A stretch of DNA of 62,683 nt, counting the filler, from Moniliella sp. 'wahieum' (taxonomy: Eukaryota): NCBI GenBank assembly GCA_003971905.1. It is 3 parts of 3 records of this genome, joined end to end, with 100 filler letters (N's around TTAATTAATTAA, not from the genome) between each part and the next. Parts side by side here need not be neighbours in the genome. Positions count along the whole stretch, not along the records: positions 52,023 to 62,683 come from RSEE01000218.1; 2 more parts are not named here. One strand, given 5' to 3'. Below, one piece after another: positions 271-57,990 of the stretch (the stretch's first letter is position 1; each line of letters opens with the position of its first letter). The position numbers and the translations under genes were made by a program. The notes below the pieces were generated by a model. It was not told the origin of the DNA. It saw nothing but the letters and a program-made list of their open reading frames with translations, and did not search any database.

Positions 271-2185
271 ATGCTTCGCCGCCGCCACCGCCGCCGCTGG
301 GCCATGCGCTGCGGCTGCTCGTGCAGCTCCAGCTCGCCGCGCGGCTCAGCACGTTTGTGCTCAACCATCTCCTCGTCCGCCTCACCTCCCCCGCCGTGTT
401 TGGCGCCGCGTCGATCCAGCTCGAGCTGCTCCTCGGCGTCGTCCTGTCTGCCGCCCGCGAAGGCGTCCGCGCCGCCACCCTGCGCGCCGAGCGTCCTTCG
501 TCTGCCTCTGCCTCTGCCTCCTCCTCCTCCTCGGGCTCGTCTCCCGCGCTCCCGCCCGCACAGCAGCAGATCCACAACCTCTCCTTCCTCAGTGTCGGCG
601 CCGGCCTGCTCTTGGCCCCCGCGGCGGCATGGGTGTACCTCACCCGCCTCGCCCCGGCCTCGCTCGCCTCGTCGCCCTACCTAGCGCCCTCGGTCGGTCT
701 CTACCTTACCGGCGGCGTGCTGGAGCTGCTCGCCGAACCGCTCTTCAATCACGCCCAGGCGGGCGGCAACGTTTCCCTGCGTGTGCGCGCCGGGGGGCGT
801 CGTTGGTGGCCAACTGCGTCGTGGTGCTCGTGTCGATTGTGCGGCCGAGCTGGGTGGGCATCCCCCTCGGCGACACGAGGGACGGGTACGAGTACGCCTT
901 GGTCGCCTACGGCTTGGGCCGCGCGGCAATGGGGTTGACGGTGCTGGTGGTGTATGTAGCGGCGTATGCGCAGGCAAGCGGATGGCGGGGTCTGGGCGAT
1001 TGCCGTGCCTCGCTACGCGCAGCAGCCTGGCCAGCGCGCGCCGCGCCTGTTCAGTCCGTCGGGCTTGCGCTTGGTTGCCGCGCTGATCCAGCAGGCGCTG
1101 TTCAAGTACGTGGGCGAGCTGGATAAGTTGGCCGTCGCGCGGCTCGGGTCGCTGGAAGACCAGGGCGGGTACGCGCTCGCGTCCAACTACGGCTCCCTGG
1201 TCGCTCGTCTCCTCTTTTTCCTATTGAAGAGGCGGCCGGATCCAGTTTGCGCGCGAGCGGGTGGCTTGCTGCCCGATGCCGAACCGGCACTGGCGACGGC
1301 GACGGCGACGGACAAGGCTACGGTCACGGCCGTCCAGGCTCGCTCGATAGCGCCTCGAAGCAGCTCTCTGACATCCTCCGCTTGCTCCTCCTCCTCGGCG
1401 CCTTCTTTTGTACGTTTGGGTTCCCCTGGCGCCGTGGGCACTGTGGATGTTGGCTGGCCGGGGATGGGCGTGCAACCCAGCGAGCGTCGCAGGGTTCCAG
1501 CTGGGCGTCTATGCGCTCTACGTGCCCGTCATGGGCATCAATGGGTCCGCCGAGGGCTTCCTCACCGCGACCGCTTCGCCGCACCTGCTACGCTTTACTC
1601 GCTCCTGCTCGCCCTGAGCAGCGGCGCGTTCATCGCCACCCTCGCCGCCTCGCATGCGCTCGAACCTACTCTGCGCACCCACCTCTTTACTTCGGGCGAC
1701 GGCGACGCGTTGGCCCATGCACTACGCCTCGGCCGCGCTGACGCTAGCTGCGATCGCGGCGACTGTCACGCGGGCCACGGCGTGCTTGGCTTACATTCGT
1801 TGGTTCTTCCGCTCCACCGCGCCGGCTGACCAGCCCAGCTTTGCATACCGCTTTCGCTCCGCCCAGCTGTTGCCGCTCTCCCGGTCCTTGCGGCCTTGGC
1901 GCGTGCGCGGGCTTGTTGAACCTCGCTCTGCCCTGGCCCGCGGCGTATGGCCACCCCGCCACCCCCCGCCACGCACGCTGGTCTCGCTACATGGGCACCA
2001 CGTACCCAGGCGCTTCCCCTCCTAACGTTTGCCCCGCCACGCTTCGTGATATTGTTCCTCCCGTTGGACTGGGTGCGGTTCTGGCCGTGGCATGCCTGAC
2101 ATTTGGTACGTCTCCCCCCCTCTCTCTGTCTCTCTCTCTCTGTCCTCCACCTTTCAGCCCTTTCCCTACCATGTGGATCTTCTAA
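271..2185 (+). CDS. RFT1: RFT1 family oligosaccharide translocation protein (Man5GlcNAc2-PP-dolichol), split by several indels; ends approximate
   Basis: Segments across frames match RFT1 motifs: 'LQLAARLSTFVLNHLLVRLTSPAVFGAASIQLELL..AREGVRAATLR', 'ELLAEPLF', 'SLEDQGGYALASNYGSLVARLLF', 'YALYVPVMGINGSAEGFLTATAS'. Confidence 0.9.
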
Positions 2186-2431
2186 CGTTCTCTGTGTTGG
2201 GCCCGCATGCCAGCTTCGCAACCAACGCCATCCCCTCCCGCGTCTTTCCAAGCGGTAAATACGATGCAAGTTCATCCGCTCCAGCACTGGGCTCACTGGG
2301 ACAACCGTCACCCGTGGCCTGCGTACCAGACGAACGCCCTGGCGCTACTCTGGCGCTGCGCTGGTTCACATGAGGTTCGTAGACGTCGTAGTGTTCGTAC
2401 CATCGTACCAGAATCGCATCCCGCTCCTCCT

Positions 2432-3542
2432 TCACGCCCCCAGGCCCAATTTCCGCGCCGCCAACCCGCCCAGCGCATGACTCACCCGCGCCACGTCCCG
2501 GAACGTCAAGCTGTAGCGCGTTTCGCGCTGCAACGCCTCCCCTCGCGCTGGGGTCGGGGTCCGAACCGTCCGGCTCGGTGGACGCCGTGCCTGTGCCGGT
2601 GCCTGTGGGGCTGGACGCACACGCAGCGGAAGGGGGAGGGGGAGGGGACAGCGTTGCCGCACCCACGTGCGGGACGCACTCTGGATGGGCACGCTGCGCT
2701 TGCTGCACCCTACGTTGCAAGTCCGCGTCGTGGAGCAACGCGGTATTCGCCACGCGCGCTAGACACTCCCCCCGTCCTCGGCGCGATCGGCAATGCCATG
2801 CAGCCAGTCGTGGTACGCGCTGCCGCGCGTGACGAGCAGCGAACGCCGTTCTTGCAGTAGGCTGAACGTCGGGTCGGGCGCGCGGGCGCCGCGTGCGCGT
2901 CGAGTGACCGGAGCGGCTGTCTCCCCAGACGGCAGAAGCGGAAGTAGGTGTAGGTGTGGGCGTCGCCCCAGCTGCCTCGAGCGACGCATCGTCAATCCAT
3001 TCGTAAATGTCCAGCAGCGCGTGCGAGCCGAGGGAAATGGTTGCTGTGACCGGCTCGTACGCCGGGCCATCGTCGTGCGGCATGATGCCCTGTCCCGGGG
3101 TGTACTCATTGATCAGGCAATGGTTCGGTGCGGCATGTCGCGTGCCCTGGAACGCACCGCACGCGGCCAAGCGCCCGACCAGGTCCGGGTACGAAGCTAG
3201 AAACGACGGCAAGCCCTGTGGGTCGGGCAACAACACGTTCTTCCCCTTGCCTGTTAACGTCCCGCCCCAGTACTGCAGCCGACGCGCTTGCAGGACCTTC
3301 CACTTGGGCTGCGGCGCATGCAGGATGTGCTCAATCAGGTACGCCTCCTCGTCCTCGGTGATAAAGTTGGGCAGGTAGAAGAAGCCCGGATGGGCCAAGG
3401 CCACGGGCGCCGCATCCGACGCCGCCGCCGACGGCGTGGCAATGCGATACTTGGGCTGCGGCACGGGGATGCGATTCGCTTCGCCCACCTGGGCGTCGGG
3501 CGGCTGCTGGAGCAGCGTGGCAGATGGCGGTGGCGCGCTCAT
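2432..3542 (-). CDS. ALKBH6: AlkB-family 2OG-Fe(II) dioxygenase, ALKBH6-like (frameshifted)
   Basis: 'FYLPNFITEDEEAYLI..KWKVLQARRLQYWGG..PNHCLINEYTPGQGIMPHDDGPAY..TISLGSH' (HxD), 'SLLVTRGSAYHDWLHGI' (distal His) and 'RETRYSLTFRDV' (RxSLTFR) in successive frames. Confidence 0.88.
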
Positions 3543-3942
3543 GCACGCGCGCAAGGGGTAAGGCTGGTGGTGGTGGTGGCAAAGTGCCTCCCGTCGGCGT
3601 CTACGTCGTCTGCCAGGTCATGTGACCATGGGATCGTCGCTGCGGCTGCTGCGCTCGGACCAGAAGCTTCGCGAGCGGTCTAGCTGAACGTTCAAACCAA
3701 TCCACTGCTTCTTCTCTGGCGGGAACAAATGGCCTCCGGGAGGCGCTACACCTGTCTGTCTGCCTTCCTGTGTCCTCTTTCGTAAGACTACCTTCTCATC
3801 CCTCCTTCCCACCAGCATGTTGGACAGCTTTTGCTTCTGCCACGCTGGCGGCGCCGCGCGCGCAGGGGGAGGCCAAGAGCAGTGCAAGCCGGAGGTGCAA
3901 ATAGAAGGGGCAAACGTGGGTTGGGTTGGTGGGGTGCGGGAG

Positions 3943-4904
3943 TTACTGTTGGAGCCGGCCGGCTGGGCTAGGCCTAGGCGTAGACGTAGGCTTAGGCCTG
4001 GGCCTGGCCTCAGCCTTGGCCTTGGCCTCAGCTTCTGCCTCGGCTTCGGCCGCCCGAGCCGCCTCTTCGTCATCGGCAATCTCCTCGGCATACACATCCG
4101 GGTGCTGGCGGAAACACGTCTGCATGTGCTGGAACTTGTCCACGCAGTCGAACCCCTTGGGCTCGGCTTCGCTAAACACAAAGCAGCTGAACGCCAGCTT
4201 GAACTCTTCCCCACAGGGGCCGTGGGCCATGCCGCCGAGACAGGGACAGTCCCAGTTGATCTCCCCTGTGCGCGGGTCAATGGCCGCCGCCTGCGGGTCG
4301 TCCGACAAGGCCCCTCGGCCTCGGCGGCCAGTGCGGCCAGCTCAGCATCCACCACAGTCGCCGCCACCTCCTCCACCGCCTCGGCATCTCCACGTGGTCA
4401 TCGCAGTCGCAGTCGCAGTCGCAGTCGCAGTCGCATTCCGCGGTTAGTTTCGTCCGGCGCCGAGAGGCTAGGAGGGACAAAGAAGAAACGTACCTGTGCC
4501 CTCTACGGTGATTTCATCGACTACCTCGCCCGAGTCGCGGATGATGGCAATGCGCTCATTGTAACTCTGGCGACGGGGGGGCGCGCCAGAAGCGGAGGAC
4601 GACGGGGTGTAGGGAGGCTCCTGCTCCTTCGCGGGCTCGGCAGACGTGCTGGAGCGCGTGATGTGGGACAGACGCGGCGGCGTAGTTGGAGCGCCCTTCG
4701 AGGTGCAGCGCGGGCGCCGTGGCGCGTAGAGCGCGGTGCCAGCAAGCAGGGCGCCGGCAGCGGCCGCGGCGGACACGGCAGCGGAGCGGCGCGCGGGCGC
4801 AGGCGCAGTGGAGGCAAAGCGCACGCCAGCGGCCAGGGCGCTGGGGCTGGGGCTGGGGCGGCGCAGGAGGGGCGCGCAGCAGCGACGGCAGGGCGGAAGA
4901 GCAT
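3943..4904 (-). CDS. MIA40: Mitochondrial intermembrane space import oxidoreductase Mia40 (presequence and TM anchor; at least one intron ~4390-4495)
   Basis: '[63 protein letters not shown]' = CPC plus twin CX9C. N-terminus [31 protein letters not shown]. Intron GTACGT..CTAAC contains (GACTGC)n. Confidence 0.92.
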
Positions 4905-8432: not shown

Positions 8433-8526
8433 TGACGAGAGTGGGATTCGAACCCACGCCCCGGAGGACTGCGGTCGAGGTAGGCGTACCTTAACACAGC
8501 GCGTTAGACCACTTCGCTATCTCGCC
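8433..8526 (-). tRNA. tRNA-Leu(AAG) with a ~14-nt intron after position 37
   Basis: Minus strand GGCGAGA TAGCGAAGTGGTCTAACGCG CTGTG TT-AAG-G [TACGCCTACCTCGA] C CGCAG, long variable arm, GTGGG TTCGAAT CCCAC, TCTCGTC-A, followed by a TTTTT Pol III terminator. Confidence 0.93.
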
Positions 8527-28572: not shown

Positions 28573-28672
28573 NNNNNNNNNNNNNNNNNNNNNNNNNNNN
28601 NNNNNNNNNNNNNNNNTTAATTAATTAANNNNNNNNNNNNNNNNNNNNNNNNNNNNNNNNNNNNNNNNNNNN
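28573..28672. other. Artificial contig linker
   Basis: Runs of N flank TTAATTAATTAA, which has stops in all six frames. Confidence 0.98.
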
Positions 28673-51303: not shown

Positions 51304-51432
51304 ACATATGTTATTGAAATCAATTGCAGGCTGGCAATTATTGATCGGCTCCGCCTGACGTCCAAAATCAATATTGATTTTGAGATGACCCGGGTTGAGC
51401 CTGAGCGATGACCTATGACGTAGTCATCACCC

Positions 51433-51860
51433 GTCGAGGCCATCGGAGGGCGGTTGGGTTGGGTTGGGTTGGGTAGGGTTAGGGATGGGTGGGTGTAACT
51501 TGTCAACGGTGCGTCCAATCGAGAAACGGAGGCCATATGCTGCATAGAGCGGACGATTTCCTAGCGAGCTATCGTCGTCGAGGCCATCGGAGGGTGGGTG
51601 TTTGTGGGTCGGGTTGGGTAGGGTTAGGGATGGGTGGGTGTAACTTGTCAACGGTGCGTCCAATCGAGAAACGAGGCCATATGCTGCATAGAGCGGACGA
51701 TTTCGTAGCGAGCTATCGTCGAGGCCATCGGAGGGTGGGTGGGGGGGTGGGGTGTGGGTAGGGTTAGGGATGGGTGGGTGTAACTTGTCAACGGTGCGTC
51801 CAATCGAGAACGGAGGCATATGCTGCATAGCGGACGATTTTATAGCGAGCTAATCGCCTC
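51433..51860 (+). repeat. Telomere-associated tandem repeat, ~3 copies of a 141-144-bp unit
   Basis: Units start GTCGAGGCCATCGGAGGG at 51433, 51577 and 51718. Each contains GGGTAGGGTTAGGGATGGGTGGGTG followed by a conserved TAACTTGTCAACGGTGCGTCCAATCGAGAA core. Confidence 0.92.
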
Positions 51861-51922: not shown

Positions 51923-52022
51923 NNNNNNNNNNNNNNNNNNNNNNNNNNNNNNNNNNNNNNNNNNNNTTAATTAATTAANNNNNNNNNNNNNNNNNNNNNN
52001 NNNNNNNNNNNNNNNNNNNNNN
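51923..52022. other. Artificial contig linker
   Basis: Runs of N flank TTAATTAATTAA. Confidence 0.98.
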
Positions 52023-52100: not shown

Positions 52101-52498
52101 AGAGGAAGAGAAACAAAAGGGAGGATGGGTGGCGGGGGTCGTTTACCGCCTGGCCGCTAATCAGCGGTGCTTGGTGCGGTGCTTTTGCTGGGGTAACCGC
52201 TAAGCTTAGCGGTACCGCTTAAGCCTGCACGTCTCGCCCCCCCCCCAGGCCGCACGCGGCGTTCCGCGGTGCCGGGCGGAAGGATGGCGAATGGCGAATG
52301 GTAAATCAGCGCGGGGGGTCGGTGCAACACGAGGGGCTGGGGCATGGAGGAGCGGGACGGAATACCGGAATAACCCAATAACCACCCACGTACGATGTGC
52401 ATCTCGAGCTACTGCCGTCGTTGCGGTCGTATACCGTGCTGGAAAGCAATGTGGGTGGGGAGTGCCATTTGCGCTACGGACAGAACCATGTACTGCGC

Positions 52499-52658
52499 TG
52501 TTGACATCCGTCCTAGGACCGCGCGGACCCTGAGTCACGTGAGTCAGCTTTCATTCCTTCCGAGCTCGCACCAGTCTTCTGGACGAGTCAGTCGCAGAAG
52601 CTTCTTAGTCCAATACGACGTTCAGTGCTCACATTCTGTGGTAGTAGCGAGGCCGACA
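52499..52658 (+). repeat. 5' LTR
   Basis: TGTTGACATCC...GAGGCCGACA, identical by eye to 57397-57556. Confidence 0.97.
52531..52546 (+). promoter_or_regulatory. Tandem AP-1/Gcn4-type sites (TGAGTCA x2) overlapping an E-box (CACGTG) in the LTR
   Basis: Sequence TGAGTCACGTGAGTCA. Function is inferred from the consensus only. Confidence 0.5.
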
Positions 52659-52884
52659 GAGTTACATCCTTATCTGCTCATCCCTGAGCTGGCCAAAACT
52701 ACACCCACAACCATGGGCGCCAACGCTAACACCGATCTCTCGGTCAGCGACACCACAATGGTGAACAAGCGCGATTACTGGACACCAACCGGTCGCGATC
52801 CGCCACCGATTGGCACCGACAACGAGGAACTCATGATGCTTTGCGCCGAAGCGCACCTGTGGTTCAAGAAGACGAACGACATCG

Positions 52885-53958
52885 ATGTCGTTAAAGAGAA
52901 TCAACAGAGCTATACACGACAGAGCCGAGTGGCTTGGATGGAAGGACGAACCTACGTCTATCACGACAAACTGGGTTCGACGGGCTACGAATTTTGTGGT
53001 GCAAAACATCCACCAAATGGAAACTCAACCCAACGCAACTTTGGGGGCACCTACAGGCGCAGCCTCGCGACCCGAGTACGACCTTTACAGATCACTACGC
53101 GAGTCTCCCACCAAGAATATCAAGTGGCCTGATCTGAACAAAGACCCGTCCGCCTACAGCGCTTGGGAAGACGAATTTCTCTTCGCGATAACAGATGCCC
53201 ACCCCCACGCAAGCGACGTCGTCCAGAATGGTCGCAGCTCCCGCTACTTCACCGAGGACCTCGACAGACGCTTGCACAACCTTCTTAGGGAAGCCATGCC
53301 GTCAACCCTCTTCCGGACGATCCGCACCCACCACGAAATATCATGCACCCAGGACACGCTGAACATGCTGCGTCAGCGGTATGGATATACGCCTACCGCA
53401 AACAGAGGGCCTCTACTCATTCGCTACTTTTCGGCCGACCAAGGAAACCGATCGGGTCGAGACTACCTCGACTACATGGAAGAGATCAGTGCAAGCCTGA
53501 CGCGAGCGGGCATCCCACTTACGGAAGAGCAGGAACGCACTGGGATCCTACTCGGCTTACGCGACATGAGCATTCGCCAGCGTGAAGAGCGCTCGAGTCT
53601 AGACAAGTTACGGCAGGCCGTGATGGACATACCAGCCGCCACGTATCCCGGTGGAGAAAGGAAGAGAAACGGAGGCAAGCCGGTCAACGGAGGAACGCCT
53701 TGGACTCGACCCGACAGCGGGGGACGACCCACCAGCGGGGGAAAAAACTCCAGCGGGGGCAAAGCCGGCGACGACAACCTCGCGGACACAAAGACCAAGG
53801 GGCAAGACCGCACCAACCAACCCTGGCGCAGCGCGACGTCTAATAAACCTGTTGTCCCTCCGCGCAACCCAGGCCGAGCCAACGCTCACGTCGCTCAGAG
53901 AGCGAGCTCTCCCGAGTCTGAAGTGATTGACGTTGATGCGGGCACAGCTGACTACTAG
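52885..53958 (+). CDS. gag: Copia Gag (capsid-like, no CCHC knuckle); true start may be ATG 52713 via a frame change
   Basis: 'AYSAWEDEF..LDRRLHNLLREAM..TLNMLRQRYG..QGNRSGRDYLDYMEEISASLTRAGIPLTEEQERTGILLGL' is typical of copia Gag. Ends at TAG 53956-53958. Confidence 0.85.
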   Translation: MSLKRINRAIHDRAEWLGWKDEPTSITTNWVRRATNFVVQNIHQMETQPNATLGAPTGAASRPEYDLYRSLRESPTKNIKWPDLNKDPSAYSAWEDEFLFAITDAHPHASDVVQNGRSSRYFTEDLDRRLHNLLREAMPSTLFRTIRTHHEISCTQDTLNMLRQRYGYTPTANRGPLLIRYFSADQGNRSGRDYLDYMEEISASLTRAGIPLTEEQERTGILLGLRDMSIRQREERSSLDKLRQAVMDIPAATYPGGERKRNGGKPVNGGTPWTRPDSGGRPTSGGKNSSGGKAGDDNLADTKTKGQDRTNQPWRSATSNKPVVPPRNPGRANAHVAQRASSPESEVIDVDAGTADY

Positions 53959-53973
53959 GAACTCGGGGGCGAA

Positions 53974-56900
53974 ATGCGAATCATCCGGGCATTATATGAC
54001 AGTGGGGCATTCCCATCCATTTGGAAAGACAAATCCGTCTTCACATCCATGACCCCTTGCGACGACGAGATAGAGGTTGCTAACGGGACACATGTAAAGG
54101 CGGAAGGACGAGGCACGGCCACAATCCGTATCCGATGCTTAGGAGGACACCAAATGGAGATAAAACTCCCCAACAGCCTATACATGCCCCGTTTCAGCCG
54201 AAATCTCGTCAGTGTAGCACACCTGTCGAACACCGGAATCGCATCATACTTCGCCCCACACCAGAAGGGTATCTGGCTTGGTAACCCAGGATCCACCCTA
54301 CGAAAAGTAACCGGCAGTGACTATCAATTCACGATCTTACACAACCCGCGAACGCCACCCACACCCCTGCGGGCCATGGCGACCAAACCGATCAAACCGG
54401 CCGACCCACCCTCAACCCCAAACTCCCTCGCAGCATCCCTGGCCCTGGACCACGTCTCTAAAGCCCACAAACGCTGGAACCACGCAGCCATCGACCTCCT
54501 CCCCTGGCTTACACGATCGGAAACCGCAGGCCTCCGCGTCACAGCCAAGCATATCTCCCTCTGTCGTTCAGAGTGGGATTGCCCAACATGCGCGGTGGCA
54601 CTAGCGACAGCATCGCCCCATCCGAGCCGGGACCGCCTCCGATCCAAAAGACCTTTCGAGGTCCTCCACGTCGACGTAGTAGACCTCCCCCGGGTAACCG
54701 GCATGGGGCACGGATACGCCCTCGTCGCCGTTGATGACTTCACGCGGTACGTCTTCACCACAGCGATCCCGACAAAGGGCGCTGCAACGAAGGAACTGCG
54801 GAACCTCATATTGCGGGAGCAACGCTACGGCCCGGACAGACTGCTGCGGACTTTGCGCACGGACAACGCCCCCGAATTGACAAGCGCACTGCAACCTTTT
54901 CTGGACGAGCAAGGCATCACGTCAGAACGGACAATCCCGGGGCAGAGTGCTAGCAACGGTGTGGCTGAGCGTGCCATCCGAACCATAACGACTCGTGCAA
55001 GGCAGTTGCTCTTGGGTACAGGTCTTCCGACGTCGGACTGGTGGGAACACAGCCTCCACGCTGCGTGCTTCACCCAAAACCAAATGCCACTCAAAACATC
55101 CGGGGAAGACAACAAATCGCGATTTGAGCGATACAAAGGCCACGCATACTCGTTACCGATGCAACCCTTTGGCCGCGTTGCATACCTCCATCTGCCCGAG
55201 TCACGCCGCGAGCACAAGCTCAGCGCGCGGGCAGAGGAAGGTATGCTGGTAGGATACCACCATCAGCGCGGATCAAAGGGATGGCTCTTCGCCACATACC
55301 AACCATCCCTGGGTACCTTCACCTACCGCTGGTCGAAACCGTACAAATGGGGCAACGCCATCTACCCCCATCTCCACCCCGACCACTTCCCACCCGACAT
55401 CTCCAAATCACCTCAAATTAAAATCGACAGTGAAAAAGACGCTAACCCTACTCCGCCAGCCGCGGCAGCACCCATGCCCCGAACCGCCGCCACACCCCAG
55501 ACACCCGCTCCCACCACCACCCCCCCTCCGCGCCGCTACCCCCTCCGCCAGCGCACCACCCGCACCTCCCTCGACCTGCACACACTCCCAATCGCTGACG
55601 ACCCCACCGACACGACCTACCATGCTCGTGCTGCAGCCGCCACGCCCCACTGCGCCGCACCAGAGATCGGCATCGCCCGCCCCCTACCTGACACATCCGC
55701 CCCCCCGTTTGCCGACACAGTTCAACCTCCCGAATACGCCGCCATGACTGCTCTCAGCGCACCCATCCACCCGGACACGGTTCAGCTCACCAAGGATGGC
55801 GTACCCCTCGCTCCCAAGACGCTCAAGGGTCTCGAGACTCACCCCTCCTTTGCCATGGTCAAGCAGGCTATGGCCGACGAGGTGGCCACACTCGCGCGAT
55901 ACGGCACCTACGAGGCTACGTACCCACCACCGGGTGCACAAATCCTCATAGGACTATGGCGCATCACCACAAAGACGGACGCCGAGGGCCGGTTCCTGCG
56001 CCACCGCGCGCGCTTTGTCGCGGGCGGACACCAACAATCGGCCGAGACTTGGGGCCAGACGTTCGCACCATCGGTGCGCACACCTGCCATCCTGACCCTC
56101 GTCGTGCTGGCCGAGAAGTATAAGTTTGGCCTCTTCTCGGCGGACGTCAATGCAGCGTACCTGAACGCCCCCCTCGAAGAAGCAGTCTACATCCGCCCAC
56201 CCCCCTACTTCCCCGAAGCGGGTGGTCGCGTGTGGCGTCTCAAGAAGAGTCTATACGGGCTACATCAGAGCGGAGCAAACTGGGCACGATACATCCGGAA
56301 CCTGCTGCGTGACAAGCTCGGCTTCACGCAAAGCTTGACCGAGCCCTGCTTGTTCGTGCGCGCTGCACCACCGGGTGAGCAGATCCTCCTGGCGGTCCAC
56401 ACCGACGATCTGCTCCTCGCATGCAAGTCACACCAAAAGTACGAGGAGTTTATGGCCGAGATAAACACACACATTGATGTTCGTGGTAACGGTCCCCTTC
56501 ACTACCACCTGGGATGCCAATACGATCGGATCGGTGGGGAGCTGTACCTGAGCCAACCAAAGTTCATCGAGGAAGTGGTGGCAAAGCACCACATCAAAGC
56601 CCCGTGGATCCGGACTCTCCCACATCCCGTACGGATGATACCGCCCCGTGCCGACCCTGAACCCCCATCCCTCCCAGCCTTGCGCAAGGCATATCAGGGG
56701 AAGATCGGATCGGGACTGTGGGCTGCACGAATGGGCCGGCCTGACTCCCTCTTCGCTATCACGGCCCTCAGCAGAGCCGCTGCCGACCCATCGCAGCAGC
56801 ATCATCAAGCAGTCGATGACTTCCTTCGCTACCTGTACCATACTCGAGGAAAGGGCCTGAGGTTGACCCCAACATCAGATGCACCGGCCATTGCGCTGTA

Positions 56901-57402
56901 TACAGATTCCGACTTGGCGGGAGATCCCATCCAGGCACGCTCCACATCTGGATGCCTACTGATGGTGTACGGTGTGCCGGTGTCGTGGCGATCCATTCTT
57001 CAGCCGAAGAGCGTTACCAGTACCGCCGCCGCCGAATATACGGCAGGATATGATGGACTGGTTGACGCCAACTATGTCAAGAACATCATGATCGAGCTTG
57101 GGGCCATCGGCGAGGGTACACCCATTCATTGGTATTGCGACAATAAGTCTGTCGTCGATCTCGCCCACAAATTTGGCAGCACCGGCAAGCTCCGAGAGCT
57201 GAAGATCCGGTACCACAATGTACGGCAACACGTGGACTCGGGCGAGGCCATACTTGTACACATCCCCGGCGAAAGGAACCCAGCGGACGTCCTCACCAAG
57301 CCTCTCGGCCGTCCCGCCCTGACAAGCCATCTTGCTCAACTCCGCGTCGAGGAGATGGATCCAGTCCACATGACTGGGCCCTCCGGTCAGCGGGGGTGTT
57401 GA
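53974..57402 (+). CDS. pol: Copia Pol polyprotein (protease, integrase, reverse transcriptase, RNase H), uninterrupted, 1142 aa
   Basis: PR 'LYDSGA'; IN HHCC 'HKRWNH..CPTC' and 'LHVDV..RTDNAPEL..SNGVAERAIRT'; RT 'RARFVAGG..DVNAAYLNA..LKKSLYGLHQSG..HTDDLL'; RH 'YTDSDLAG..STAAAEY..CDNKS..NPADVLTKPL'. Confidence 0.97.
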   Translation: MRIIRALYDSGAFPSIWKDKSVFTSMTPCDDEIEVANGTHVKAEGRGTATIRIRCLGGHQMEIKLPNSLYMPRFSRNLVSVAHLSNTGIASYFAPHQKGIWLGNPGSTLRKVTGSDYQFTILHNPRTPPTPLRAMATKPIKPADPPSTPNSLAASLALDHVSKAHKRWNHAAIDLLPWLTRSETAGLRVTAKHISLCRSEWDCPTCAVALATASPHPSRDRLRSKRPFEVLHVDVVDLPRVTGMGHGYALVAVDDFTRYVFTTAIPTKGAATKELRNLILREQRYGPDRLLRTLRTDNAPELTSALQPFLDEQGITSERTIPGQSASNGVAERAIRTITTRARQLLLGTGLPTSDWWEHSLHAACFTQNQMPLKTSGEDNKSRFERYKGHAYSLPMQPFGRVAYLHLPESRREHKLSARAEEGMLVGYHHQRGSKGWLFATYQPSLGTFTYRWSKPYKWGNAIYPHLHPDHFPPDISKSPQIKIDSEKDANPTPPAAAAPMPRTAATPQTPAPTTTPPPRRYPLRQRTTRTSLDLHTLPIADDPTDTTYHARAAAATPHCAAPEIGIARPLPDTSAPPFADTVQPPEYAAMTALSAPIHPDTVQLTKDGVPLAPKTLKGLETHPSFAMVKQAMADEVATLARYGTYEATYPPPGAQILIGLWRITTKTDAEGRFLRHRARFVAGGHQQSAETWGQTFAPSVRTPAILTLVVLAEKYKFGLFSADVNAAYLNAPLEEAVYIRPPPYFPEAGGRVWRLKKSLYGLHQSGANWARYIRNLLRDKLGFTQSLTEPCLFVRAAPPGEQILLAVHTDDLLLACKSHQKYEEFMAEINTHIDVRGNGPLHYHLGCQYDRIGGELYLSQPKFIEEVVAKHHIKAPWIRTLPHPVRMIPPRADPEPPSLPALRKAYQGKIGSGLWAARMGRPDSLFAITALSRAAADPSQQHHQAVDDFLRYLYHTRGKGLRLTPTSDAPAIALYTDSDLAGDPIQARSTSGCLLMVYGVPVSWRSILQPKSVTSTAAAEYTAGYDGLVDANYVKNIMIELGAIGEGTPIHWYCDNKSVVDLAHKFGSTGKLRELKIRYHNVRQHVDSGEAILVHIPGERNPADVLTKPLGRPALTSHLAQLRVEEMDPVHMTGPSGQRGC

Positions 57403-57556
57403 CATCCGTCCTAGGACCGCGCGGACCCTGAGTCACGTGAGTCAGCTTTCATTCCTTCCGAGCTCGCACCAGTCTTCTGGACGAGTCAGTCGCAGAAGCT
57501 TCTTAGTCCAATACGACGTTCAGTGCTCACATTCTGTGGTAGTAGCGAGGCCGACA
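57397..57556 (+). repeat. 3' LTR
   Basis: Identical to the 5' LTR. The pol stop codon TGA lies inside it (57400-57402). Confidence 0.97.
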
Positions 57557-57990
57557 TGCGCTCTAGTGCGCAACAGAGGGCACACGGCACTTATTAATCA
57601 CGTCGATTGGGTGGTCTTTGGGCTGCTAGGTAGGGTGTGGTGCGGGGAGAGGGGAGGTACATCGTCTGTGGCACCCACGTGCAACGGAGGGAAGAAGGAA
57701 GCCTGGACTAGCTTGGACGCAGCTCAGCTCAGCTCAGCTCAAGGGAAGGGTCAGGATTAGGGTTAGGGTCCTGAGGTCCACACGCTCCGTTCTCAGGCAG
57801 ATCCAACAGAAAGACGCAGAGCAGAAGGTTGACCGAGCGACACCACGCTACCACGATATGACGATAGGACGATTGCATGGTAAGATCCAAGACCCAAGTC
57901 CAGGGATGATTGACGAGGCCTGAGGGTAGGGTGGCAGTCTCTCCCGGACCCTCTGCTGACGACAGCACACGGCACGGCCCACGAGCACGG

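Follow-up and report, generated by a model that had tools for sequence, protein, structure and literature searches.

Structure of the element

The analysed stretch of DNA (62,683 nt, hereafter the window) carries a Ty1/copia LTR retrotransposon of 5058 bp at positions 52499-57556 on the plus strand, which is also the orientation of all features described here. It is bounded by two direct LTRs of 160 bp (5′ LTR 52499-52658, 3′ LTR 57397-57556), which begin with TG, end with CA and agree in 160/160 bases (100% identity), and both are flanked by the 5-bp target-site duplication TGCGC (left copy 52494-52498, right copy 57557-57561). The identical LTRs, the short duplication and the copia order of the pol domains, i.e., protease-integrase-RVT_2 with the integrase upstream of the reverse transcriptase, identify the element as a recently inserted, young Ty1/copia copy, and they bear out both the LTR identity and the copia assignment put forward in a preliminary description of this DNA. 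No second copy of the element was found within the window. Among sequencing runs, no RNA run matching the element was listed, and fragments of pol that are 99% identical occur in one food-metagenome study, none of them spanning the gag/pol junction. The nearest named Pol homologues are Ustilago proteins with 24-33% identity, and they alone make the basidiomycete label of the preliminary description plausible.

The pol ORF (53959-57402) comprises 1147 codons, ends with a TGA inside the 3′ LTR and encodes the protease, the integrase core, RVT_2 and a C-terminal part. Pfam matches along its residues were obtained for Pol_BBD (13-93), rve (230-329), SH3_retrovirus (401-443) and RVT_2 (656-880), with the integrase core at about 54646-54945 and RVT_2 at about 55924-56598. 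The protease domain (53977-54342), with its DSG at 53998-54006, was delimited by the Pol_BBD match and by an AF2 model of retropepsin-like fold (mean pLDDT 81), the best PDB matches of which are the XMRV and HIV proteases. Residues just upstream of the gag stop are modelled with low confidence, the protease fold begins 7 residues past the stop, and its first strand is modelled directly after the Met encoded by AUG 53974. Given the low confidence ahead of the stop, the model speaks neither for nor against a protease fold that spans the stop and would make a fusion obligatory.

The gag frame (52837-53955) spans 373 codons from stop to stop, matches no Pfam family, and is homologous over residues 44/45 to 371/372 to P0040, a stand-alone gag ORF discussed below. 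According to GC3 and codon-usage scans, its first ~90-100 codons appear to be in another frame, and the probable true 5′ part of gag lies at 52713-52990 in the frame with coordinate mod 3 = 0. Position 52713 is the first ATG after the 5′ LTR, and the ORF opened by it continues to the TGA at 53130-53132 and has no similarity to P0040. The same scans locate the frame change somewhere in ~52900-53040. The change reflects an assembly error or else a lesion, and because of it the copy itself may be defective. The intactness claimed earlier for pol holds, pol being open throughout, but intactness is not demonstrable for gag.

The gag/pol junction

In the frame with coordinate mod 3 = 1, stop-to-stop reading gives two successive open stretches, 52837-53958 and 53959-57402, and the TAG at 53956 is the sole stop in the gag-pol frame before the TGA at 57400. 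The junction has a gag-stop-pol layout with a single in-frame stop, no other stop and no change of frame. The preliminary description had quoted the junction sequence and placed gag and pol in the same frame, separated by a single UAG at 53956-53958 with the catalytic DSG 14 codons downstream, and all of this was recovered at the expected positions. The UAG is followed by G (context UAC-UAG-GA). The first AUG of the pol frame (53974-53976) lies 5 codons past the stop, being the 6th codon after it, and precedes the first modelled strand of the protease by one codon; the D of DSG occupies codon 14 after the stop.

A genome-wide reassignment of UAG was rejected, since TAG terminates 12 of the 43 long ORFs in the window, with no hint that it is read as sense. 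We likewise discarded a +1 shift at the stop, because the +1 frame beyond the stop closes within ~35 codons.

Conservation of the gag stop

An exhaustive HMMER search with gag + X + protease as the query gave 89 matches at E ≤ 0.001, and the one match at E ≤ 1e-10 was P0040. This stand-alone gag ORF of 410 aa, which itself has a sub-threshold Retrotrans_gag match (E 0.084), is ~29% identical to the gag of the element and is its only detectable relative. The last 25-26 residues of the two proteins align gap-free in both BLASTP and MAFFT, and both end one residue after a common D, in the same alignment column. Because a gag with so little overall identity terminates at the same column, the stop appears to have been inherited in the lineage and not to be a fresh nonsense mutation, as had been argued earlier on other grounds. 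The comparison supports the view that stopping at the Gag/protease boundary is built into the design of these elements.

P0040 is carried by a contig of 5089 nt, P0002 (pol 63% identical) by a contig also of 5089 nt, and a diverged contig matching the element is likewise 5089 nt long; P0040 and the pol of P0002 very probably share one contig. The ORF call of P0002 starts only in the integrase, and its protease region may thus be broken. For P0003 (pol 45% identical, on a contig of 5549 nt), the ORF call starts 9 codons before DSG, which would fit a gag/pol boundary at the same place. Junction-region residues 60-520 and gag alone gave no match as homologous-protein queries, and pol alone found no related loci among metagenome and viral contigs. 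With a three-sequence alignment as the query, nothing was found in viral contigs, and the 80 metagenome loci obtained, all of 22-35% identity, provide a base rate only.

RNA signals around the stop

The UAG followed by G is shared with the MuLV-type (type III) readthrough signal, but the ~8-nt purine-rich spacer and the stable pseudoknot or hairpin of that type were not found at the junction. The preliminary description had proposed a pseudoknot-like fold at 53962-54011, formed by CUCGGG/UCCGGG (53962-53967/53984-53989) and AAUGC/GCAUU (53973-53977/54007-54011). These pairings exist and were the best H-type candidate in a crude scan, but as a signal they are no better than chance: a pseudoknot at least as good was obtained in 85 of 300 shuffles and at 28 of 94 other positions of the element. 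Stem 1 of the candidate would begin 3 nt past the stop and not after a ~8-nt spacer, and only 5 of the first 8 nt past the stop are purines. The long hairpin suggested at 53965-54018 is absent from every minimum-energy fold. Folds 3′ of the stop are less stable than the shuffle mean (z +0.49 to +1.28), and with the pseudoknot at chance level the postulated downstream RNA readthrough signal does not stand. The hexamer 3′ of the stop, GAACUC, corresponds neither to the TMV-type (type I) CARYYA nor to the yeast CARNBA, and a search of Rfam with 53700-54300 gave no match.

Possible routes to Pol

We hypothesize that the lineage ends gag with a stop placed exactly at the Gag/protease boundary and keeps pol in the same frame. 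The majority of ribosomes would terminate at the UAG and produce Gag, and the few that pass it would produce Gag-Pol and thereby set the Gag:Pol ratio. The route would be decoding of the UAG by a near-cognate tRNA, i.e., translational readthrough, and would operate without a recognisable local signal, having neither the TMV-type hexamer nor the MuLV-type spacer with a stable pseudoknot. This young copy has the layout and the conserved stop position on which the scheme builds, and we infer that the bypass would occur on the full-length RNA and as readthrough. Low-level readthrough yielding Gag-Pol is the most likely reading and the one that we favour. The scheme as a whole, in which a conserved boundary stop is passed by a small share of ribosomes, most likely by readthrough, has in our judgement about an even chance of being correct.

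It is unlikely, in our view, that Pol is made apart from Gag, either through reinitiation at AUG 53974 or from an RNA that is subgenomic or transcribed from an internal promoter, although no fusion protein would then be needed. The AUG lies only 5 codons past the stop and has A at -3, and its product would contain the whole protease domain as modelled by AF2. Reinitiation after a long ORF is, however, normally very inefficient. The TURBS motif 1 (UGGGA) is absent from the 120 nt upstream of the stop, the AUG being 15 nt downstream, and the 17 ATG triplets between the LTR and AUG 53974 rule out leaky scanning. The Met at which P0003 begins is one position off this AUG and merely reflects how the ORF was called, and a free Pol would require another way into particles. 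The junction of Tca2 shows weak promoter activity, but its pol expression is described as tracking the promoter in the LTR rather than the one at the junction (PMC2194720).

Splicing at the stop codon has a very small probability in our estimate. A candidate in-phase mini-intron of 36 nt (53923-53958, GTGATT...CTGAC...TAG), in which the 3′ splice site is the stop codon itself, would be removed in a minority of cases to give Gag-Pol and retained to give Gag. The candidate has a GT, a length divisible by 3, a YAG coinciding with the stop and, 7 nt ahead of its AG, a branch-point consensus (CTGAC), and it is the only stop-spanning GT-AG candidate that retains the protease. A CTRAY is present 2-20 nt upstream in 44 of the 765 TAG sites in the window, accompanied by an in-phase GT in 31 of these 44 and by a loose 5′ site in 12; such features would thus arise by chance in ~1.6-4% of sites. 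The idea was, however, conceived only after inspection of the sequence, the 5′ site lacks a G at +5 and departs from GTRNGT, and a length of 36 nt falls at or under the minimum usual for fungal introns. Moreover, the protein sequence of the 12 mini-intron codons is conserved in P0040, with Ile in place of the Val that supplies the GT in the element. Stop-codon splicing was raised as an idea by Forbes et al. for Tca2 too (PMC2194720); if true, it would place the switch exactly on the stop and would offer an answer to how the stop is bypassed in Tca2-like copia elements.

We also consider it highly improbable that the copy is dead, with the UAG as a nonsense mutation or sequencing error in an element whose gag and pol would normally form a single ORF or be joined by a frameshift. 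The gag of P0040 terminates in the same column, which a random stop among ~1500 codons would rarely do, the LTRs are identical, pol is open over 1147 codons, and its frame opens at the codon immediately past the UAG. These observations stand against the facts that the majority of copia elements consist of just one ORF, that the gag of this element already has a frame change, and that a run of five G (53965-53969) lies between the stop and the protease, where one extra G would shift pol into the +1 frame, leaving an overlap of 32 nt. The distant metagenome loci also speak for a dead copy: 14 of the 80 reach the protease, 1 of these lacks the motif, and in none of the remaining 13 does a stop occur within 150 codons upstream of it, in a junction scan with a rough choice of motif that placed some protease motifs >1000 codons into the ORF.

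Comparison with known systems

Among copia elements that have a gag stop in frame with pol, Tca2 is the best-studied case of how Pol is made. The in-frame gag-stop-pol layout is rare and already known from Tca2 and VdLTRE5; new is the distant gag relative P0040, which by alignment stops at the same column as the gag of the element. The element represents a second lineage, one in which the UAG is conserved and no local signal can be recognised, in a GC-rich fungus akin to smuts by its nearest named matches. It is therefore an independent system for asking whether the bypass proceeds by readthrough, by splicing or by separate initiation.

The elements Tj1, Tosmo and Tcry1 of fission yeasts are likewise LTR retrotransposons of fungi in which an in-frame stop is conserved at the Gag-Pol junction, and that of Tj1 is reported to be essential for transposition (PMC10085805). 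They differ in belonging to Ty3/gypsy and in having a UGA in a strictly conserved GAA-TGA-CT, compared with the UAC-UAG-GA of the element. Moloney MuLV, as described in PMC2194720, shares the UAG followed by G, gag and pol in one frame and a stop adjoining the start of the protease. It is, however, a retrovirus and not a copia element, and its stop is followed by an 8-nt spacer and then a pseudoknot, whereas in the element the candidate stem starts 3 nt past the stop, the corresponding spacer has purines at 5/8 positions and the folds are no more stable than shuffles.

The Ty1/copia elements Tca2 and VdLTRE5 are likened to the element here by layout and features, not by sequence relatedness. 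VdLTRE5 of Verticillium dahliae has one in-frame stop between gag and pol, LTRs as short as those of the element (159 bp vs. 160 bp) and, in the published account, no CARYYA after the stop (PMC3441728); it differs in its UGA, its ascomycete host and its number of only two copies. Tca2 (pCal) of Candida albicans resembles the element in being active or young, in having gag and pol in one frame and in the single stop at the gag/pol boundary, and in published accounts the sequence at its junction is no proven local signal for readthrough (PMC2194720, PMC7175516). Its pol is produced from an LTR-driven gag-UGA-pol RNA, and a 300-nt junction failed to drive readthrough in S. cerevisiae, according to PMC2194720. 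Unlike the element, Tca2 has UGA in place of UAG, 280-bp LTRs and a length of 6.4 kb (160 bp and 5.06 kb in the element), an ascomycete yeast as host, and an 8-nt purine-rich spacer with a predicted pseudoknot, the counterparts of which are no better than chance in the element. By analogy, a bypass without a local signal would resemble Tca2 and VdLTRE5 more closely than the gammaretroviruses.

A young copia element with a stop between gag and pol

The junction sequence quoted in the preliminary description lies where it had been placed, and the claim of a single in-frame stop between gag and pol holds. In the plus-strand frame with coordinate mod 3 = 1, the sequence is open, from stop to stop in the standard code, over 52837-53958 (373 codons) and then over 53959-57402 (1147 codons), TAG 53956-58 being the sole stop there until the closing TGA at 57400. 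The catalytic DSG is as close as had been noted, its D being the 14th codon past the UAG, while AUG 53974 is the sixth. Four Pfam domains, i.e., Pol_BBD (protease, pol residues 13-93), rve (230-329), SH3_retrovirus (401-443), and RVT_2 (656-880), follow one another in the pol ORF in Ty1/copia order; no Pfam family matched the gag ORF. The LTRs, 160-bp direct repeats at 52499-52658 and 57397-57556, are 100% identical, as described; they start with TG, finish with CA and are abutted on both sides by TGCGC. The element is a 5058-bp copia and a recent insertion, and no further copy occurs within the window. The stretch directly 3' of the 5' LTR (52659-52680) is the expected place of the primer-binding site.

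Other features of the window were noted in passing. Four 44-N runs form the filler joints (28573-28616 with 28629-28672, and 51923-51966 with 51979-52022), each pair enclosing 12 bases and one pair lying ~480 bp upstream of the element. Upstream of the element in the window, RSEE01000184.1 carries three tandem units of ~107 nt at 51419-51810, spaced by 145 and 140 nt and 74-86% identical. ARAGORN called a 94-nt tRNA without assigned identity, possibly intron-containing, at 8433-8526 on the minus strand. On the same strand, 2166-4397 holds open stretches of 259 and 483 codons in one frame separated by a single TGA; chance, an intron or an in-frame stop could account for this arrangement.

The stop at the protease boundary and in relatives

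An AF2 model of the junction (40 residues before the stop, X for the stop and 130 residues after it, with a 79-row alignment) reached a mean pLDDT of 81. Its closest PDB matches are retropepsins, the XMRV and HIV proteases, at a weak best E of 9.7e-4 and a TM-score, by target length, of ~0.55. Since model residues 26-37, directly before the stop, have pLDDT < 50 and the first strand (residues 48-55) opens after it, one residue past the Met of AUG 53974, the stop is predicted to sit in a linker at the domain boundary. A product started at this AUG would contain the entire modelled protease domain; the model itself favours neither a need for a Gag-Pol fusion nor its absence.

Gag, X for the stop, and the protease were joined into a 494-residue query and compared with 1.84 billion representative proteins. 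Among 89 matches at E <= 0.001, all except one align weakly with the protease region of diverse copia proteins; the sole match at E <= 1e-10 was P0040, a stand-alone 410-residue ORF on a 5089-nt Logan contig, and residues 90-408 of P0040 match query residues 44-371. P0040 resembles gag at 28% identity in BLASTP (7e-25) and 29% in a global MAFFT alignment, and in both the final 25-26 residues are gap-free. The two proteins finish one residue past a common Asp, so that the alignment puts both stops in one column. With ~1500 codons to strike, a random nonsense mutation would only very seldom land where a 29%-identical gag also stops, and on this comparison of Gag proteins we therefore take the UAG to be inherited and probably a conserved feature of the lineage.

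P0002, a pol relative with 63% identity to the element, also comes from a 5089-nt contig, and the lengths and offsets fit one related element that could hold gag, a protease region of ~500 nt and then P0002. Because the P0002 ORF call does not begin until the integrase, near pol residue 167, the protease region of its element may be broken or just uncalled. The ORF call of P0003 (pol 45% identical, 5549-nt contig) begins 9 codons before the DSG, which agrees with a boundary at the same place and is silent on frame. A food-metagenome run (X1-X3) contains low-depth contigs over 54314-57491 that are 99% identical to portions of pol and the 3' LTR. At ~10x greater depth, the same run includes a diverged sister element on a 5089-nt contig that covers the element in patches.

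The layout was further compared with 80 metagenome loci obtained via a three-sequence pol alignment, all distant (22-35% identity). The match extends into the protease in 14 of them, one of which has no D[ST]G motif at the expected spot. The nearest in-frame stop upstream is 376-1400 codons off in 8 of the 14, and 5 are open up to the contig end (158-1104 codons). A stop within 150 codons upstream of the protease motif was found in 0/13 loci by a rough script, for which some motif placements are doubtful. The named homologues of pol from Ustilago (24-33% identity) join gag and pol in one protein, with a CCHC knuckle. The in-frame stop is thus unusual among copia elements, matching the literature.

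The 5' part of gag

By third-position GC and by a pol-trained codon-usage score, frame 0 (coordinate mod 3 = 0) is preferred between 52713 and ~52990, and the gag frame not before ~53025; this switch points to a +1 frame change in gag somewhere within ~52900-53040. The first ATG past the 5' LTR, at 52713, starts a 139-codon ORF (52713-53132) off the gag frame; the gag frame opens at 52837 and frame 0 closes at 53132. With the frame change allowed for, the length of Gag would come close to that of P0040. An indel of the assembly, a genuine lesion of this copy or an overlapping ORF could each account for the change, which leaves the junction untouched. A five-G run (53965-69) lies between the UAG and the protease, and a length off by one would put pol in another frame; with pol otherwise open across 1147 codons, we judge such an error unlikely.

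Possible routes past the stop

We infer the mechanism of bypass and give readthrough of the UAG about an even chance. Its proposed RNA-structure part is unsupported by the folds and the pseudoknot scan. For stretches of 70, 102 and 146 nt at and past the stop, minimum-energy folding gave z-scores of +1.28, +0.49 and +0.90, with 183, 128 and 165 of 200 dinucleotide shuffles, respectively, folding equally well or better; the 81 nt 5' of the stop gave z = +1.06. The long hairpin suggested for 53965-54018 is absent from every minimum-energy fold computed. The suggested pseudoknot (CUCGGG/UCCGGG, -6.2 kcal/mol; AAUGC/GCAUU, -2.9 kcal/mol) did emerge as the best H-type candidate in a simple two-stem scan, but it is no better than chance, being equalled or bettered by 85/300 shuffles and by 28/94 other 70-nt stretches of the element. 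Its stem 1 would begin only 3 nt past the stop, whereas a spacer of ~8 nt precedes the structure in MuLV and Tca2 (PMC2194720). Purines make up 5 of the first 8 nt past the stop, the 3' hexamer GAACUC matches neither CARYYA nor CARNBA, and Rfam gave no match over 53700-54300.

Separate initiation of Pol at AUG 53974 is improbable in our view, even though this AUG is well placed, with A at -3 and right where the protease starts. Leaky scanning is ruled out by 17 ATG triplets upstream, the 120 nt 5' of the stop contain no UGGGA (TURBS motif) that would serve reinitiation, and in Tca2 pol is reported to track the LTR promoter rather than a weak junction promoter (PMC2194720).

Splicing out of the stop codon, easily testable with RNA data, we consider very unlikely. 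The 36-nt candidate mini-intron 53923-53958 (GTGATT ... CTGAC ... TAG) is in phase and is the only GT-AG candidate over the stop that leaves the protease intact; however, it was conceived post hoc, after inspection of the sequence. Of the 765 TAG triplets in the window, CTRAY precedes 44 at a distance of 2-20 nt, and 31 of those also have an in-phase GT 30-90 nt upstream; a loose 5' site was present in 12 and GTRNGT in 6, and the candidate 5' site at 53923 lacks GTRNGT. Moreover, P0040 keeps the 12 codons as protein, with Ile at the position of the Val whose codon provides the GT in the element. A dead copy or assembly error is just as improbable, given that P0040 stops at the same column and that the identical LTRs and open pol agree, which also upholds the earlier argument against a random nonsense mutation.

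Comparison with known systems

Several elements are already known to have gag and pol split by an in-frame stop. Among papers listed by full-text searches, no title or abstract opening describes a basidiomycete copia with this layout, which does not prove that none exists. In Tca2 of Candida albicans, a UGA divides gag from pol, and the junction has a spacer rich in purines and a predicted pseudoknot (PMC2194720, PMC7175516). Its 300-nt junction reportedly gave only background-level readthrough in S. cerevisiae, Pol was still produced from LTR-driven RNA, and its authors leave the bypass open, mentioning stop-codon splicing (PMC2194720). The copia element VdLTRE5 of Verticillium dahliae is described with 159-bp LTRs and an in-frame UGA that is not followed by CARYYA (PMC3441728). 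Fission-yeast gypsy elements conserve GAA-TGA-CT around their stop, which is reported to be essential for Tj1 (PMC10085805).
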